IMG/VR virus record: IMGVR_UViG_3300032053_005312
Span: 1-64,000 of that record
DNA length: 64,000 bases
DNA from: a virus
Direction: 5' to 3' (one strand)
Shown: positions 721-46,686 of the stretch, one piece after another
Numbering within the stretch: the first letter of the stretch is position 1
Layout of the letters: every line of letters begins with the position of its first letter
The notes under the pieces: model-generated
What the model saw: only the letters and a program-made list of their open reading frames with translations
Databases searched by the model: none
Told to the model about the DNA's origin: nothing
Position numbers and translations under genes: made by a program

Positions 721-791
721 AGGTGTGTGGTGTAGCGGTAGCACGCTGATCTCCAAAATCATCGGTGAGGGTTCGACTCCTTCCACACCTG
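721..791 (+). tRNA. tRNA-Trp(CCA)
   Basis: Anticodon loop CTCCAAA; G73. Confidence 0.9.
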
Positions 792-798
792 CTTAGAT

Positions 799-2404: not shown

Positions 2405-2968
2405 ATGGAAAAAAAATACATCATAATGTCCGGTCAGAAACGTGCAGCGATTGAGTTAACTTGTGAATTTTGTAAAGAGTTATTTTTGACTCGACAAGGT
2501 GGTAAGTTAAAGCGATTTTGTAGTTCTGATTGTTGGAATAAAGCAAAAGTAAATAATGCCCAAGTTGAAGTGACTTGTGCGTTTTGCAGCAAGACTTTCT
2601 TGAAAAAGAAATCTTTGCTCAAAAATTCCAAAAGTGGATTGAGATTTTGCAATGCGACCTGCAAATGCAATGCTCAGAAATTAGGAGGCATAACTGAAAT
2701 TATGCCTTTTCATTATGGCGCAGGAGACGGGAGGTATTCTTGCAGAAACATAATTCAAGAGGGTTCAGAATGCGTTGATTGCAAAGAGAATAGATTGTAT
2801 TACTTGGTTATTCATCATGTCGATGGCGATAGGAGCAATAATGATGTAATCAATTTAGAAATAGTTTGTGCAAAATGCCATACAAAAAGACATTTGAAAA
2901 ATGTTGATGGCAAATGGATTTTTTGCACAAGTGTTTTAACTCCTCGCAATATGTTGAGTTATTTATAA
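2405..2968 (+). CDS. HNH endonuclease with N-terminal Zn-ribbon repeats
   Basis: CxxC..FCS repeats; IHHVDGDRSNN..CAKCH. Confidence 0.85.
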   Translation: MEKKYIIMSGQKRAAIELTCEFCKELFLTRQGGKLKRFCSSDCWNKAKVNNAQVEVTCAFCSKTFLKKKSLLKNSKSGLRFCNATCKCNAQKLGGITEIMPFHYGAGDGRYSCRNIIQEGSECVDCKENRLYYLVIHHVDGDRSNNDVINLEIVCAKCHTKRHLKNVDGKWIFCTSVLTPRNMLSYL

Positions 2969-2969
2969 T

Positions 2970-3041
2970 GGCCCATTCGTCTACTGGCTAGGACCGCTGT
3001 TTTTCAGGCAGCAGAAGACGGATCGAAACCGTCATGGGTCA
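2970..3041 (+). tRNA. tRNA-Glu(TTC)
   Basis: GCTGT-TTTTCAG-GCAGC. Confidence 0.88.
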
Positions 3042-3051
3042 CTTAGTTGTT

Positions 3052-3120
3052 GGATAAATTAGTGTAACGGTAGCACGCTCCCGTGGAGGGAGAAGATTGG
3101 TTCGATTCCAATACTCATTT
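3052..3120 (+). pseudogene. Degenerate tRNA (5-nt anticodon loop, broken acceptor stem)
   Basis: D arm TAGTGTAACGGTAGCAC; CTCCC-GTGGA-GGGAG; T arm ATTGG-TTCGATT-CCAAT. Confidence 0.6.
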
Positions 3121-3122
3121 AT

Positions 3123-3195
3123 GCCGCTTTGAGCAGAGTGGGATTGCGCCTGTCTTGTAAACAGGAATGAGTGAGTTCGATTCTCACAGGCGGCT
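3123..3195 (+). tRNA. tRNA-Thr(TGT)
   Basis: CCTGT-CTTGTAA-ACAGG. Confidence 0.88.
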
Positions 3196-3225
3196 CTGAA
3201 TACTTTAACCTTTTGGAGAAATACT

Positions 3226-3973
3226 ATGGTGTGTCTTTGGCTCGAAACTGTGCGGATTTAGACCAACAGGTAGGTTACACCTGGGGCATTACTTCTCGGT
3301 GATTCAACCGGGACAATCTGGGTGTACTGTACTGGTGGCAAACTATCATGCACCGGAGGTAAAGAATCTGGAAGTATCCGTGAACGCCTTACGGCAATAC
3401 GGTGTCCAGACCATAGTGATTCAGAAGGACGTGTTCGACGCTGAGTTGTTCTTCCGACTATTGACGCTCGCTAAAATGGGCGACTTGAGCCGGATGACAC
3501 AATTCAAGTCAACAGAAGAGGACGATAGGACTGGTCAATTGCTGACTTACCCTGTTCTCATGGCGCATGATGTTGCGGGTTACTCCGAAGTCATTGTGGG
3601 TCTGGACCAGAAGCAGCATTTGGAATATGCCAGAAAGCTGTTGAGAAAATACAACAGCGTATATGGCACGACACATCCGATCCCGATAGCCAATATCGTG
3701 GTGGGACGTGTCAAAGATTTGCGTGACCCGACGAAGAAGATGTCGAAGTCATCACCGCAAGGATGTTTATTCCTTGATGATACGGTTGATGATATTCAAC
3801 AAAAGATTCGGAAGGCGACCGCAGATGAAGAGGGCCTGAATAACTTGAAGTTTTTGTATGGGGAGTTTGTAAGAGAAACGCCTCCAGCAAGCAATCAAGA
3901 ACTGAAAGAGAAGCTGGCCGATAGTTTGGTGAAATGCTTTGCAAGCTGTAGTGGCACAGCATCCGGCTCTTAA
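3226..3973 (+). CDS. trpS: Tryptophanyl-tRNA synthetase (compact); needs +1 frameshift at CTT-TGG-C (3235-3241)
   Basis: GFRPTGRLHLGHY (HIGH) lies upstream of the ORF-track start; YPVLMAHD, GLDQKQH and KMSKS present; the only SD-ATG (GGAG..ATG 3226) is in another frame. Confidence 0.88.
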
Positions 3974-4008
3974 CTGGAAGGTTCAGGGTTCAAGTCCCTG
4001 GCGAAGCA
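3936..4008 (+). tRNA. tRNA-Lys(CTT), overlaps trpS 3' end
   Basis: TCCGG-CTCTTAA-CTGGA; trpS stop lies in the anticodon loop. Confidence 0.82.
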
Positions 4009-4013
4009 CTCAT

Positions 4014-4096
4014 GCAGGTATGGCAGAACGGTTTATGCTCCTGACTCTTAATCAGGGATCGCAAGATCAACGTAGGTTCGACTCCTACTGCCTGCA
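4014..4096 (+). tRNA. tRNA with Lys(CTT) anticodon and class II long variable arm
   Basis: CCTGA-CTCTTAA-TCAGG; variable hairpin GATC-GCAA-GATC; Leu/Tyr-like D arm. Confidence 0.82.
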
Positions 4097-4104
4097 CTAT
4101 TTAC

Positions 4105-4176
4105 GGCGTGTTCGACTTCTGGTGAGGTCATCTGCCTTTCAAGCAGATTAGATGGGATCGAAACCCATACACGTCA
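4105..4176 (+). tRNA. tRNA-Glu(TTC)
   Basis: TCTGC-CTTTCAA-GCAGA. Confidence 0.88.
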
Positions 4177-4177
4177 C

Positions 4178-4301
4178 TTGTTGGTGGAAGAGTTCATATA
4201 CAGTTGCCCAATACTATTTGCCTTCTACGCAAATATAGGGCTACCAGGGACATATGAAGTTCAACTGAAAAACTGGAATATCGGCCACCCGAAACCAACA
4301 A
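4178..4301 (+). ncRNA. Structured ncRNA candidate
   Basis: Closing stem TTGTTGGT/ACCAACAA; nested TTCATAT/ATATGAA and TATTTGC-CTTCTAC-GCAAATA. Confidence 0.5.
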
Positions 4302-23114: not shown

Positions 23115-23279
23115 ATGGCAAGATCACTACAAAAAGATCAAAGCATCACTCAAAAAAATGATGCCAGCAGCATTGGGAACAAGCGTCGGAAGGCTCGGAA
23201 GGCCAAGACGAATTCCAATAAACGTGACCGTCAATTTCTAAACAAAGACCTAAAGGAACAGATCATGAGCTTGTGCTAA
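23115..23279 (+). CDS. Small basic protein upstream of frr
   Basis: MARSLQK..KRRKARKAK; stop 22 nt before the frr ATG. Confidence 0.5.
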   Translation: MARSLQKDQSITQKNDASSIGNKRRKARKAKTNSNKRDRQFLNKDLKEQIMSLC

Positions 23280-23301
23280 CTTAAACGAAGCCCGGTCCTC
23301 G

Positions 23302-23772
23302 ATGGACAAGGCATTTGAATTTTTCCGTGACCAAATGCGAGGCATCAGGCATGGAGAAATCTCCACTGGCCTCATCGACACAATCCGGGTGGAAGCATAC
23401 GAGCAGCGATTGCCGCTCAAGCAACTGGCCTGGACAGCACCAGATAAAAATAACCGAATCCTAGTGTCACCGTATGACACAGCTTTATTGGGAGCGATTG
23501 ATCGTGCCATTAGAGCAGAAGGGTTCAACTCCTATGTTTTCTCCAAAACCCAGGTGGTAGTCAATTGTCCGGTTCGTAGTGGCGAAGATACAGAACGGGT
23601 GATCCAACAGATCAATAAGCTGGCCGAAGAAGCCAGAGTTGTGATTAGGAATATCCGAAAGAAGATTCGCCAAAAAGCCGAAGAGGATATAGACAAGCCG
23701 CTTCAAAAGTTGACGGATGAAAAGATCAAAGAAATCAATGATCTCGTTGACTATAAGGTGAAGTGCTTATGA
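23302..23772 (+). CDS. frr: Ribosome recycling factor (compact)
   Basis: IRHG..LIDTIRVEAY..PLKQLA..PYD..EEARVVIRNIRK..LQKLTD. Confidence 0.88.
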   Translation: MDKAFEFFRDQMRGIRHGEISTGLIDTIRVEAYEQRLPLKQLAWTAPDKNNRILVSPYDTALLGAIDRAIRAEGFNSYVFSKTQVVVNCPVRSGEDTERVIQQINKLAEEARVVIRNIRKKIRQKAEEDIDKPLQKLTDEKIKEINDLVDYKVKCL

Positions 23773-38041: not shown

Positions 38042-38413
38042 ATGAAGCGTAATCCGATTGCCAACTATTGTAAACAACAAGTAGAGGGCTGGGACAAGCT
38101 GCCTGAGTTCATGAACTTCGCCCCTCTTGGGGAAGAGGACTTTTGTTGCAGTTTTCTTCGTCGTGCTGACGGGATTCAAATGTTGGCGTCAGTGAAAGAC
38201 CTAAACTCCCTCAATACCATCCACATCTCTTTGGCTCCGATTCGAGATTGCCGCAAAGACTGGACTGATGAAGAACATAGTGGACACATATTCGATGTGG
38301 CGTTTGAAGTAGTCGAGTCGTTTTTCCCCGGTCGAAGGTTTGCACGACAGCCCGATGATCTCCGCAGACCCCAAGTGAAGCATTACTTCGCCATTCTGGA
38401 GGCCAATGAATGA
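38042..38413 (+). CDS. Hypothetical protein
   Basis: ATGA overlap with metG. Confidence 0.55.
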   Translation: MKRNPIANYCKQQVEGWDKLPEFMNFAPLGEEDFCCSFLRRADGIQMLASVKDLNSLNTIHISLAPIRDCRKDWTDEEHSGHIFDVAFEVVESFFPGRRFARQPDDLRRPQVKHYFAILEANE

Positions 38414-40056
38414 ACGAGTTCCACATTTCAGAAAAAGACAACAACACCACGTTCGTCACCACGGCGATTGATTATCCGAATGCTATGCCGCATATTGGTA
38501 CAGCTTTCGAGAAGATCGGTGCAGACGTGTACGCCCGGTTCCGTCGATTCCAGGGTCGTGATGTATATTTCACGATGGGCAATGACGAGAACACGGTGAA
38601 AGTGCTTAAAGCGGCGAAGGCTGTGGACAAGCATCCTCAGCCATATGTCGATGAAATGGCCGAAGCGTTTAAGGCTGTGTGGAAAGAACTCAATATTTCC
38701 TTTGACGATTTCATTCAGACCAGCGAAGATCGGCATCTGTTGGGCGTTCAGAGATTTCTGCGTGCTGTTAATGCTGCTGGATATATCGAGAAGCGACCAT
38801 ACAAGGCTCTCTATTGTGAGGGCTGTGAAGAGTTCAAGAGTCCAAATAGCTTGGACCATGCAAAGCGATGCCCGAACCATACTGGCACACCGTTGGTGGA
38901 GCGGGAGGAAGAGAATTACTTCTTTCTTCTATCTGCATTCAAGCAGCGTGTGGCTGATTTGATTTATCCTACTCCATTCCTCACTGCTTTCCTGAGTATC
39001 GAGCCAGAGTCTCGTTACAACGAAGTCACCAAGTTCATCAACACGGAACTGACGGATATTTCCATCAGTCGCCGCAATGAAGGCTGGGGCATTCCAATTC
39101 CTTGGGATGATACACAGGCCACCTATGTCTGGTTCGACGCTTTGTTGAACTATTTGACCGTGATTGGTTTCGGGAACGATTGGGAGAAATTCCAAAAGTA
39201 TTGGCCTGCTGAAGTTCACTTCATCGGCAAGGACATTACTCGGTTCCACTGTGCATTGTTCCCGGCAATGTGCATGGCATACAACGAAGGCTGTGATAAG
39301 TTGGGTGAACCTCAATACAAGTTGAAGGCTTTCCCTCAGCGTGTATTCGCCCACGGATTCGTGAATCAAAAGAAGGGAAGTCAGGTTGTCAAGATTTCCA
39401 AGAGCGGAGATTCAATCCAACCTGGAGAACTGATTGAGCAGTTCGGGTCGGATGCGTATAGATATTACTTCTTGTCGAAGTTCAACTACGATACGGACGG
39501 CGAATATAGCCTGGACCACTTCAGAGAAGTGTATAACGCTGACCTCGCCAACTCTTTGGGCAACCTCGTGAGTCGTACTGTAGGAATGTCGATGCAGTAT
39601 TTCGACGGGAAGATTCCACCGATGGCCGCAGAAGGCCAGACTTGGCTTGATGAGAAGACGGCGTTGGAATACGAGCAATTTATTGTGGATTGTTGTTCGT
39701 ATCGGCACGCTCTTGAATTGACGTGGAAGATCATCTTCAACGCCAACAAGCTGATCGAGGATTCCAAGCCGTGGGAGTTGGTTAAGTTGCCCGGCAACAC
39801 CTGCGGTCAGGTGTTGGGCCAACTTGTGGGCAGTCTGAGAATCATCAGTCTGTTGATCCGACCGTTCACTCCAGCGGTGGCCGAGAAGATTTACACGACG
39901 TTCCAGTGGGCTGAAGGTTGGAATGAACTCGATTGGGAGTTCGTCAAGAAGTTGTCTGAAAACAACTTCCTGGGACTCGAAAACGGTATTGCCATCAATA
40001 GGAATGTTTTAGATAATGCCGGAAAGTTTCCAGTGTTGTTTCCGAGGGCCAAATGA
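38410..40056 (+). CDS. metG: Methionyl-tRNA synthetase
   Basis: TTAIDYPN..HIGT; YVWFDALLNY; IGKDITRFH; KISKS; LANSLGNLVSR. Confidence 0.93.
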   Translation: MNEFHISEKDNNTTFVTTAIDYPNAMPHIGTAFEKIGADVYARFRRFQGRDVYFTMGNDENTVKVLKAAKAVDKHPQPYVDEMAEAFKAVWKELNISFDDFIQTSEDRHLLGVQRFLRAVNAAGYIEKRPYKALYCEGCEEFKSPNSLDHAKRCPNHTGTPLVEREEENYFFLLSAFKQRVADLIYPTPFLTAFLSIEPESRYNEVTKFINTELTDISISRRNEGWGIPIPWDDTQATYVWFDALLNYLTVIGFGNDWEKFQKYWPAEVHFIGKDITRFHCALFPAMCMAYNEGCDKLGEPQYKLKAFPQRVFAHGFVNQKKGSQVVKISKSGDSIQPGELIEQFGSDAYRYYFLSKFNYDTDGEYSLDHFREVYNADLANSLGNLVSRTVGMSMQYFDGKIPPMAAEGQTWLDEKTALEYEQFIVDCCSYRHALELTWKIIFNANKLIEDSKPWELVKLPGNTCGQVLGQLVGSLRIISLLIRPFTPAVAEKIYTTFQWAEGWNELDWEFVKKLSENNFLGLENGIAINRNVLDNAGKFPVLFPRAK

Positions 40057-43239: not shown

Positions 43240-43641
43240 ATGGAATTATCACCCTCTGTTCAAAAACTTATAGCTATCCGCACCAAGCTGGAAGAGGAAC
43301 GGCATCAATTTGCCATCAAGCACGGCTTCGCCTTCAAGCGGGCGCAAAACTTCAAAGATTGCGTCGTGATCCGTTGGAAAACATCAACTAAGAAGCACAA
43401 GATCAACCATCCTCGCATTGAGGAATATGTCAAAATAAGTCATGAACTTTCCGACAAGCACAATTTGTGGGTTGAAGATTACCCATTCCTCGAAACCGGA
43501 CTCCTATTGTTGAAGATTGGCATTTACGTCTTCTATTCATGGGACTACCAATCTTGGGCCATCCCAAATGAAAACAAGGAAATTCAGGACTACGTTCTGA
43601 GCAATTTACCCAAATGGGCCAAAGTGAGTGTGAAGAAATGA
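43240..43641 (+). CDS. Hypothetical protein
   Basis: ORF overlapping the argS start. Confidence 0.5.
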   Translation: MELSPSVQKLIAIRTKLEEERHQFAIKHGFAFKRAQNFKDCVVIRWKTSTKKHKINHPRIEEYVKISHELSDKHNLWVEDYPFLETGLLLLKIGIYVFYSWDYQSWAIPNENKEIQDYVLSNLPKWAKVSVKK

Positions 43642-44930
43642 TTCGCCCTATCCCGCTATCTCATGGCGTTGGGTTTTTCTCAATGCAGCAATTGCCTCAA
43701 TTTGCAGGCAAGTACCGTGAGGAAAATGTCGGTCGCTACTGGAACTACTACGTCACTCCAGAGTGCCAGGAATGGCCCGAAGCTGTGACGTATAAGGGTC
43801 CGTATGTAATCGACGGGTTCTCCCCAAACCTCAACAAGAGTCTGCACGTCGGGCATCTACGTCAATTGGCTTTGGCCAAGTCTTTGGAGAGCATTATGAA
43901 CTATGCTCAACAAAAGCCTAATGCCAAGTTCGTGTCCCTATTGGGAGCGTCACAAGGCGTCTTTCAATACGCCACCGAGCAACTGAATGGATGGTTCGAT
44001 TTTCTGAACTTCCATCCAGAGTTGCACTACGACGTATTGATGCCACGAGATCAGGAGATCGTTCCTCGTTACAAAACCAAGGTGCCGGTCAAAGACTCTA
44101 TTTCGACCGACATTAACGGCAACCCTTTCGAGCATGAGGAAGAATGTGAAGTATGGGATGGCCCCAATGGGCCTGTAATCGTCGTTCGTTGGGATGGGCG
44201 TCCTTTGTATGCCTTCCAAGACATTGCCTTCTCGAAGGTTGTGGGGCCGACGCATTACATCACTGGCACTGAGCAACAGGAGCATTTCGCAAACCTGGGG
44301 CTGGGCGACAAGCACTTGCCTATGGGCCTTGTATTGGGCGCTGACGGCAAGAAGATGAAGTCTCGTACTGGCGATAGTGTCACGGCGAAAGAAGTGCTGG
44401 ATCAGATTGTGTCACAGCTTGATCCGACACCTGAACCGAACAAGCTGGCGTGGAATGTATTGGCATGGAACTTCCTTCATGTCGCTCGTTCCAAGAGTGT
44501 GAAATATACACCGCAAGAATGGACGAAGCCGGATGCTCCGGGCATGTATATTTCCTACACTTATGCTCGTTTGCAATCGGCCATGAGTCAGGTGCCATAT
44601 CGTGATCGCACGGCTCGGCATGTTGTTCGCATTACCGCAGCGGGTGTCAACGCAGTGTTTGATCCAGAGTACGATTTGACGCAAGGTGATGCCGAACTCA
44701 TTGGCTTTGCAAATCAACATGCTTATTTTTTGGCACGAAGCATTGAGTCGTTTGACCCAGCGATTTTGGCAAACTTCACTTACGATCTTGCAGCGAAATT
44801 AGGACAAGCGTATCATCTGGACAAAATCGTTGATGGTCGTTGGGGATTCAAGTATTCTGTATCGCAGGCGTTGACACACCTTCGTTTGTGCATGTGTCAA
44901 CTTGGCATGTTTCCTTTGGAGAAGATTTGA
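43638..44930 (+). CDS. argS: Arginyl-tRNA synthetase (lacking most of the N-terminal domain)
   Basis: SPNLNKSLHVGHLR; EQQEHF; KMKSRTG; YISYTYARL. Confidence 0.88.
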   Translation: MIRPIPLSHGVGFFSMQQLPQFAGKYREENVGRYWNYYVTPECQEWPEAVTYKGPYVIDGFSPNLNKSLHVGHLRQLALAKSLESIMNYAQQKPNAKFVSLLGASQGVFQYATEQLNGWFDFLNFHPELHYDVLMPRDQEIVPRYKTKVPVKDSISTDINGNPFEHEEECEVWDGPNGPVIVVRWDGRPLYAFQDIAFSKVVGPTHYITGTEQQEHFANLGLGDKHLPMGLVLGADGKKMKSRTGDSVTAKEVLDQIVSQLDPTPEPNKLAWNVLAWNFLHVARSKSVKYTPQEWTKPDAPGMYISYTYARLQSAMSQVPYRDRTARHVVRITAAGVNAVFDPEYDLTQGDAELIGFANQHAYFLARSIESFDPAILANFTYDLAAKLGQAYHLDKIVDGRWGFKYSVSQALTHLRLCMCQLGMFPLEKI

Positions 44931-45845: not shown

Positions 45846-45881
45846 GTAGAGGTCCAGCAAAATTTTTTGGAGTAGAGAGAG

Positions 45882-46686
45882 ATGAGAAATGTCAAAATCA
45901 TGAATCAAGGACACGGCGGCAAATCTTCGGCAACATCCTGTCTTTAGCGACTCTAAAGTTCTAATCTTAGAACTGCATGGCGGGGAAGGTGGCGAAGACT
46001 CGAAGTTGTTCGTCGCCGATTTACTTGAAACCTATCTCAAATACGCTTCCAACTGTGGATTAGGCTATGAAGTCCTGACAAAAGAACACGGTCACGCAAT
46101 TGCCAAGATCACAGGCAAAGGCGTCTGGAAAGCGTTTCAAAACGAACCCGGCAAACACGTTGTACAGCGTGTCCCACCCACAGAGCGTGGTGGGCGACGG
46201 CAAACCTCTATTGTGACGGTTTCTGTCATGCCGCTGCCTCCTGAGAACACTCAGGAGCCGCTTCGTGAAAAAGACCTGGACATTATCTTTCAGACGGGCA
46301 AGCAGAAGGCAGGCGGTCAAAACGTCAATAAGGTGGCGTCAGCCGTCCGCATGAAGCATAAGCCGACTGGAATGATGGTGTTCATCAACGGTAGAGATCA
46401 GAAGCAAAATCTCGATGAGGCGTTGCGCATTTTGACCTTCAAGGTCAATGAGCAAAAGCGGCTCAAGATCGAGGGCGAATACGATCAATCCCGTAAGACG
46501 CAGATGATGAGCGGCGGTGATCGAATTGGTGGTAGAGGCGATAAAATTCGCACCTACAACTTCATTCAGTCTCGTGTCGTGGATCACAGGCTTGGTCGCA
46601 AAACGGCAAACATCAAAGAGGTCATGAAGGGTAATTTCTCCATCCTGTTCAATGATGGAGAAATGTCTGGCAGTGACGACGAATAA
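45882..46686 (+). CDS. prfA: Peptide chain release factor 1-like (lacks domain 1); needs +1 frameshift at CTT-TAG-C (45942-45948)
   Basis: ILELHGGEGGEDSKLF lies upstream of the ORF-track TTG start; E.GKH.VQRVPPT (PxT); AGGQNVNK; IRTYNF..RV.DHR. Confidence 0.88.

Follow-up and report, generated by a model that had tools for sequence, protein, structure and literature searches.

A candidate programmed +1 frameshift at a tryptophan codon ahead of a phage tryptophanyl-tRNA synthetase gene

The IMG/VR virus record IMGVR_UViG_3300032053_005312 is a 78.6-kb virus fragment (CheckV completeness 16%), and its first 64 kb, positions 1 to 64,000, were analyzed here and are referred to as the window. The window carries a compact gene, trpS, for a protein resembling tryptophanyl-tRNA synthetase (TrpRS), and the frame of this gene has no start codon of its own in front of the catalytic HIGH motif. 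Based on the sequence comparisons described here, we conclude that trpS is very probably gated by a programmed +1 frameshift at CTT TGG C. We give a probability of about 0.6 to the full model, in which feedback from Trp-tRNA is added to the frameshift. The evidence comprises the frame layout, conservation of the nucleotides across 28 loci, selection on the encoded protein in the HIGH segment, which lacks a start, and a product free of Trp.

Layout and conservation of the shift site

A Shine-Dalgarno (SD) element precedes the ATG at 3226-3228, and the frame opened by this ATG (the 0 frame) reads ATG GTG TGT CTT TGG CTC GAA ACT GTG CGG ATT TAG, an 11-codon frame that ends at the TAG at 3259-3261, as an earlier reading of the sequence alone had described. 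The TrpRS frame is +1 relative to the 0 frame. It has been open since a TAA at 3206-3208, after which it translates as ..WCVFGSKLCGFRPTGRLHLGHY, and it encodes ..GSKLCGFRPTGRLHLGHY... Within it, GFRPTGRLHLGHY occupies 3254-3292 and contains the HLGH form of the HIGH motif. The first ATG, GTG or TTG of this frame is GTG 3299, so that the catalytic signature is missing from any open reading frame (ORF) called at that position; the sequence-only reading had placed the motif upstream of the called start, and its coordinates were exact. The gene-caller ORF from GTG 3299 encodes 224 amino acids. When CTTT (3235-3238) is taken as one step, with CTT at 3235-3237 and the T at 3238 skipped, a 248-amino-acid product results that begins MVCL-GSKLCGFRPTG. 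The 3-nt spacer TGT lies between CTT and a GGTG element at 3228-3231, and the 14-nt shift-site pattern has a single occurrence in the whole 78.6-kb record.

Two contigs from other runs, X8 (2992-4300) and X12 (2900-3419), show 0 differences and 0 gaps across the site, and X12 comes from a different study (hydrothermal vent). The frame break is thus not an assembly error. A protein search returned hundreds of homologues of 200-270 amino acids, some of them on contigs up to 670 kb. Among the best 120 homologues, most gene calls are either truncated at the N terminus or include a 'W-C-V-F-G' stretch that arises when the motif is translated in the wrong frame. We collected 78 loci from viral, metagenome and genome collections, and the frameshift layout is common to 28 distinct loci that span 55-98% protein identity and about 20 separate lineages. 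The prfB-type +1 shift at CUU-UGG-C that had been proposed to join the ATG to TrpRS is, as a structural reading, strongly supported by these 28 loci together with the identical independent assemblies.

The elements of the layout are conserved at the nucleotide level. The 0-frame ATG has an SD core 4-11 nt ahead of it in 27 of the 28 loci, the remaining locus ending at a contig edge, and it stands 3-11 codons upstream of CTT. The six bases CTTTGG are invariant (28/28); the next base is C in 27 loci and T in L005. The G-rich element always ends 3 nt before CTT, at position -4; 26 loci have GGTG and the other 2 have GGAGG. The base before GTG is G also at loci where the codon ahead of it is not ATG but CAG, CTG, AAG, ACG or CGG, and therefore the constraint acts on nucleotides and not on the peptide. 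The 0-frame stop follows 2-13 codons past CTT, with CTT TGG CTC TAA as the commonest form. No ATG occurs in the TrpRS frame of these loci, apart from one in L005 that has no SD, and in many loci a TrpRS-frame stop lies just 8-14 nt 5' of CTT. When the stops of all loci are overlaid, the change of frame is narrowed to about 4 codons ending at CTT TGG, an interval in which CUU_U is the sole slippery element.

Beyond the break, selection is seen on the protein. In the 15 codons of CGFRPTGRLHLGHYF the amino acids are nearly invariant and all 15 third positions are variable. The spacing from CTT to the His codon of the HIGH motif is 40, 43 or 46 nt, and thus insertions and deletions occur in threes. 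Because the amino acids are kept while third positions vary and length changes come in threes, the HIGH segment is read in the +1 frame despite lacking its own start. Six invariant bases in 28 loci, next to third positions that all vary, also place the conservation of CTTTGG far beyond chance.

A 13-nt pattern, GGTGNNNCTTTGG, was searched in four related phage genomes (134-511 kb, including genomes of 430 kb and 511 kb). It matches trpS only in three of the four, and the fourth, G001, has two further matches; reversed patterns used as a control gave 0-2 matches per genome. On this evidence the shift motif is not a general recoding signal.

The predicted product is a compacted, putative TrpRS-like enzyme. 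It matches Pfam PF00579 (9.9e-30), and the best NCBIfam model is trpS TIGR00233, at 106.7 bits and under the cutoff of 176.75. The HIGH and KMSKS signatures are both present (Table 1). The nearest solved relative is the G. stearothermophilus TrpRS (5dk4), in which LLTYPPLMAADI and VGEDQKQHIE align with LLTYPVLMAHDV and VGLDQKQHLE of the phage protein. The segments LLTYPVLMAHD and VGLDQKQH can be aligned to the Trp-pocket segments of the G. stearothermophilus enzyme, and we take the residues of ..TYPxLMAxD.. and GxDQxxH to have the same Trp-pocket role here. An AlphaFold (AF2) model built from 48 homologues reached a pLDDT of 92.6, and its top fold matches in the PDB are all bacterial TrpRS (TM 0.80-0.85 when normalised to the query, about 0.6 when normalised to the target). 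At 248 amino acids, compared with the usual 328 or so, the protein is about 80 residues shorter and does not include a complete C-terminal anticodon-binding domain.

Table 1. Coordinates of the shift site, the trpS gene and nearby tRNA genes in the window
Feature	Position	Strand	Basis or comment
tRNA-Trp(CCA), phage-encoded	721..792	+	ARAGORN; putative reader of 0-frame UGG
tRNA-Thr(TGT)	3123..3196	+	ARAGORN; Rfam RF00005, 55.3 bits
Shine-Dalgarno GGAG	3215..3218	+	sequence inspection; 7 nt 5' of the start codon
Short 0-frame ORF, ATG to TAG (MVCLWLETVRI, then stop)	3226..3261	+	abortive product if UGG is decoded in frame
G-rich SD-like GGTG	3228..3231	+	ends 3 nt 5' of CTT; putative anti-SD pairing
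Spacer TGT, E-site codon	3232-3234	+	between GGTG and CTT
Shift heptamer CTT TGG C	3235..3241	+	P-site Leu CUU; A-site Trp UGG; +1 Gly GGC
Compact TrpRS +1 ORF (GSKLCGF.. to TAA 3971-3973)	3239..3973	+	HLGH 3278-3289; KMSKS 3737-3751
tRNA-Lys(CTT)	3936..4009	+	covers last 38 nt of TrpRS ORF including stop; ARAGORN, Rfam

Trp-tRNA sensing and alternative explanations

From the layout we infer a slip mechanism, its stimulation by the SD-like element and its dependence on Trp-tRNA. Ribosomes would initiate at the SD-preceded ATG 3226 and translate three codons, which would bring peptidyl-tRNA-Leu onto CUU in the P site with UGG in the A site. With a prompt supply of Trp-tRNA(Trp), UGG would be decoded and the ribosome would meet a stop a few codons on, leaving a useless 11-amino-acid peptide. 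With the A site left empty, tRNA-Leu would re-pair from CUU to UUU, probably aided by the GGUG element 3 nt upstream, and GGC (Gly) would then be read. After the slip the 248-amino-acid TrpRS would be produced in the +1 frame, and this would happen when charged tRNA-Trp is scarce. The enzyme would charge the tRNA that reads the 0-frame codon, which would close a negative feedback loop on the logic of prfB, with a sense codon replacing the stop. The phage-encoded tRNA-Trp(CCA) is a possible substrate of this TrpRS, and a functional link between the two is likewise possible. The yeast Ty1 site CUU_AGG_C alone gives about 40% shifting (PMC5009743), and a shortage of Trp leads to frameshifting at UGG in human cells (PMC8942854; PMC13751296).

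The evidence for sensing comes from the codon at the A-site position and from the composition of the products. UGG occupies this position in 28/28 loci, with no stop or other codon found there. The products themselves are free of Trp: 0 W among 5,295 residues in 23 locus products and 0 W among 23,932 residues in 107 homologue clusters, compared with 1.6% W in the ORFs of the window and 22 W in 8,555 residues in the in-frame outgroup loci. Because the products lack Trp, the UGG of the shift site is the only Trp codon on this message, and the enzyme could be completed without Trp-tRNA once a ribosome has shifted. The invariance of UGG, the absence of Trp from the products of about 130 clusters, and a second gene of the window that appears to be gated by CUU-UAG-C all strengthen the Trp-sensing reading.

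This second gene, at 45869-46686, is a shortened RF1-like release-factor gene that also has no in-frame start. The prfA model scores 208.8 bits and the prfB model 130.2, and the product has a PxT-type motif and GGQ, with domain 1 missing. An SD (GGAG, 45869-45872) precedes an ATG at 45882, the frame of which is MRNVKIMNQGHGGKSSATSCL followed by a stop, ending TCC TGT CTT TAG C. The CTT lies at 45942-45944 and the TAG at 45945-45947, and the release-factor domain resumes in the +1 frame from 45946. In a close relative, G001 (L084), the equivalent site reads ATG GTC TGT CTT TAA C. By its sequence the RF1-like gene is a putative prfB-like switch with a stop that RF1 can read, and in both trpS (UGG) and the RF1-like gene (stop) the A-site codon matches the gene product. 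We hypothesize, at roughly even odds, that huge phages carry a 'product-matched' family of +1 switches that share one cassette, consisting of a G-rich element, N3 and CUU_U, with UGG in TrpRS genes and UAG or UAA in RF1-like genes.

An RRF gene at 23265-23772 (PF01765, 2.6e-26, from ATG 23302) has RRF-like sequence extending 5' of ATG 23302 in frame and without a start, and an SD-preceded ATG at 23265 opens M-S-L-C-TAA, which lies in the -1 frame. The site in this gene is TGC TAA C and not CUU_U, and a +1 shift there is much less clear.

Several observations weigh against Trp sensing, or against the frameshift as we describe it. The GG of UGG also opens the +1 Gly codon GGC, as in Ty1, and the invariance of UGG could reflect a need for this Gly codon instead of the sensing of Trp. 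The GGUG element would pair with another part of the anti-SD than the AGGGGG of prfB does, and the RF1-like site in the window has no SD-like element, so that the role of a stimulator is uncertain. Sense codons are normally decoded fast, and basal shifting may therefore be very low. The site stands at codons 4-5, unusually near initiation. For some bacteria, inefficient shifting on the prfB motif is reported (PMC12421855), which may hold for the host here as well. Finally, proteins with ordinary in-frame N termini nest inside the clade of frameshift loci, and hence the device is dispensable.

A maximum-likelihood tree unites the frameshift loci in one clade (support 91/94), whose sole extra member is a copy truncated at its 5' end. 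About 48 more distant loci have an in-frame ATG 36-75 nt before the HIGH motif and lack every element of the shift motif; for prfB, a joint loss of all elements has likewise been reported (PMC12421855). Once database proteins with plausible in-frame N termini join the tree, several of them fall inside this clade. These in-frame-looking relatives, P0022, P0033, P0039, P0058 and P0099, were judged on their protein N termini, and a scan of viral contigs with P0022 gave no match. The device was probably lost several times, as far as these sequences allow a judgment. Two loci of the clade look like defective or mis-assembled copies. L064 (about 1480-1560) equals L017 minus 8 nt, a deletion that takes the ATG and the GGTG together with the C of CTT and leaves no start, and in L029 everything 5' of the HIGH histidine is missing.

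The most serious alternative, which we consider unlikely, is a +1 shift at a fixed ratio without sensing of Trp. The site would then shift at a constant low efficiency, either as a throttle on TrpRS or as a tolerated, 'corrected' indel, and UGG would be present only since both the slip and fast decoding in the +1 frame call for a U followed by GGC. Consistent with such a requirement, the +1 codon is GGC or GGT in 28/28 loci, and GGC is the +1 codon of Ty1 CUU_AGG_C. The poverty in Trp also extends to the in-frame relatives mentioned above, and may be a family trait. In contrast, a chance pairing of the sole Trp codon with the sole Trp-charging enzyme is a priori unlikely, and the position is UGG throughout the 28 loci, never a stop or another codon. 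The RF1-like gene of the same phage has UAG or UAA at the equivalent place, and a weak SD or start codon would suffice as a simple throttle. We therefore prefer the programmed +1 frameshift with Trp-tRNA feedback.

A second alternative, which we regard as improbable, dispenses with the frameshift. The 0-frame ORF would be a separate leader that contains a Trp codon, and TrpRS would arise by non-canonical initiation or by reinitiation, for example at CTG 3248 or ATA 3221, positions that the sequence-only reading had itself named as possible starts. Leaders rich in cognate codons, such as trpL and pheM, are known regulators, and the Leu codon before CGF is TTG in about one third of the loci. However, this codon (3248) may be CTG, TTG, CTT, CTC, TTA, CTA or ATT and has no SD at a working distance, which excludes it as a general site of initiation. 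ATA 3221 in turn lacks conservation, and neither start survives as an alternative. Reinitiation after the 0-frame stop cannot yield an enzyme with the HIGH motif in the window, since the CGF codons come before the stop at 3259-3261, and the motif itself comes before GTG 3299, where the frame next offers a start. There is also a single Trp codon in the leader and no conserved RNA structure for attenuation.

No conserved stimulatory RNA structure was found (Alifold -2.65 kcal/mol; single-sequence z-score -0.43), and Rfam gave no known cis-regulatory RNA, including T-box, in 2900-4300. Attenuation or a riboswitch was rejected on these grounds, together with the 29-nt leader and its one Trp codon.

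Quadruplet decoding, in which a phage tRNA with an enlarged anticodon loop would read CUUU as Leu and allow constitutive read-through, appears still less probable. The phage does have a large and odd set of tRNAs, in which one anticodon loop has 6 nt and Asn and Lys anticodons occur on class-II bodies, and just 16% of the genome is available. Nevertheless, the 78.6 kb (16% complete) contain neither a tRNA-Leu nor a tRNA with an 8-nt loop, and quadruplet decoding gives no role to the conserved UGG, the following C or the G-rich element.

A decaying pseudogene or a sequencing error, to which the truncated gene-caller ORF, the TIGR00233 score under cutoff and the damaged copies L064 and L029 might point, is hardly credible given the identical independent assemblies, the recurrence of the frame break at 28 distinct loci, where the protein beyond it is under purifying selection, and the confident TrpRS-like AF2 model.

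Two other candidates were rejected. Transcriptional slippage would require more than a three-T run, which is generally too short, and the scar of a selfish nuclease cassette was dismissed since the HNH-like ORF at 2405-2968 is absent from relatives that are 96-98% identical and from the other loci. This 187-amino-acid ORF, whose matches to HNH and zinc-finger domains are weak, is flanked by tRNA genes a short way upstream of trpS, and its absence from the relatives L001 and L023 suggests that it is probably a mobile insertion.

Setting of the gene

The sequencing runs behind the stretch are sediment metagenomes. ARAGORN finds 34 tRNAs in the window, and the TrpRS gene is embedded in a large tRNA array, with just 29 nt between the 3' end of tRNA-Thr and the ATG of the TrpRS leader. 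Further products encoded in the window are MetRS, an ArgRS-like protein, RRF and the RF1-like factor, a repertoire of translation genes such as that described in huge phages (PMC7162821). The genes for MetRS (38410-40056; PF09334, 3.5e-84) and the ArgRS-like protein (43614-44930) are uninterrupted and have ATG starts, and trpS is the only frame-gated synthetase gene in this fragment. A blastn search against deposited phages gave matches to tRNAs only. Of the words sampled from the stretch, 0.05-0.07 are present in the RNA runs, a negligible share that probably stems from parts of tRNAs and is evidence for neither side.

At its 3' end the TrpRS ORF overlaps tRNA-Lys(CTT), and its tail ..CSGTASGS is translated tRNA sequence. 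Related TrpRS proteins have either the same CSGTASGS-type tail or a longer conserved C terminus (..RRYAALDEL..QEMGLYD). Processing of the 5' end of this tRNA-Lys would strip the stop codon from the TrpRS message. Additional features of the tRNA array include a tRNA at 3053-3120 that was found by Rfam (31.6 bits) and missed by ARAGORN, the tRNA with a 6-nt anticodon loop at 2030-2104, and a second tRNA-Lys(CTT) at 4014-4097 with a long variable arm.

Significance and comparison with known systems

A literature search found no published account of a frameshift-gated synthetase. In the part of a 2016 recoding review available to us (PMC5009743), on which our comparisons with Ty1 and antizyme also draw, tRNA synthetases are not mentioned, and a paper on huge phages (PMC7162821) does not mention frameshifting. 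If our reading is true, trpS would provide the first natural example in which frameshifting at the cognate sense codon regulates a synthetase, and the ribosome would read tRNA charging directly at this site, with neither RNA structure nor a protein repressor. If confirmed, it would show that the prfB principle, by which a product sets how often the A site is filled at its own shift site, holds for tRNA charging as well as for termination factors. T-boxes, leader-peptide attenuation and the stringent response would then be joined by a fourth route for sensing charged tRNA. Huge phages would thereby tune their own translation genes through recoding signals. The element is about 16 nt long and would need no RNA structure, which makes it an easily testable and potentially portable sensor of Trp-tRNA. 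For annotation, more than 100 of these phage trpS genes are truncated or mis-extended by current gene callers.

The closest parallel is prfB, the RF2 gene, whose cassette is AGGGGG-N3-CUU_UGA_C (PMC12421855; PMC5009743). Both sites have a CUU in the P site followed by U (CTTT in 28/28 loci) and a C after the A-site codon (27/28). A G-rich element ends exactly 3 nt upstream in prfB and in 28/28 trpS loci, and at trpS its pairing with the anti-SD is putative. Both lie early in the gene, such that a failure to shift leads to abortive termination, and in both the A-site codon is one whose decoding depends on the product of the gene. Similarly, each has in-frame relatives that lack all of the elements together, and the E-site codon is UAU, as in prfB, in five of the trpS loci.

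The differences from prfB are also clear. The A-site codon is the sense codon UGG, whereas prfB has the stop UGA, and the product is a synthetase that acts one step removed, through tRNA charging, and does not itself enter the A site as RF2 does. The SD-like element is GGUG or GGAGG instead of AGGGGG, the site is at codons 4-12 compared with about 25, and the genes are in huge phages. Of the prfB-type element proposed from the sequence alone, the position 3 nt before CTT is therefore retained and the prfB consensus is not; the geometry of the heptamer likewise holds, yet CUU-UGG-C is equally near to the yeast Ty1 site CUU-AGG-C. We conclude that the site would work like prfB but is not a member of prfB.

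The Ty1 and ABP140 sites, CUU_AGG_C, share 6 of 7 bases with the trpS site and have the same +1 codon, GGC (PMC5009743). In Ty1, as proposed here, the A site holds a sense codon that is limited by the supply of aminoacyl-tRNA, and peptidyl-tRNA-Leu slips off CUU. Ty1 differs in being eukaryotic and without an SD stimulator, its codon is slow through a rare tRNA with no feedback loop, and the product of these genes, a Gag-Pol or methyltransferase fusion, is unrelated to the codon (PMC5009743). The +1 shift of antizyme resembles the loop proposed here in that the frameshift is both sensor and effector of a homeostatic loop; in contrast, antizyme senses polyamine, shifts at the stop codon of UCC_UGA_U, and is eukaryotic (PMC5009743).

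As in attenuation, the sensor proposed for trpS would be a ribosome that waits at the cognate codon. The purpose would also be shared with T-box riboswitches and leader-peptide attenuation of the trpL/pheM type, which answer a shortage of the cognate charged tRNA by raising the output of synthetase or pathway enzyme. Unlike these systems, the 29-nt leader of trpS has no Rfam element, no alternative hairpins and a single Trp codon, and the output would be a choice of reading frame inside the coding sequence and not the termination of transcription. The trpS site is also comparable to 'hungry-codon' shifting in starved E. coli and at UGG in Trp-depleted human cells, where a shortage of charged tRNA promotes the shift (PMC5009743; PMC8942854; PMC13751296). 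Such events are errors or by-products of stress, whereas the trpS site is conserved and is required for the product.

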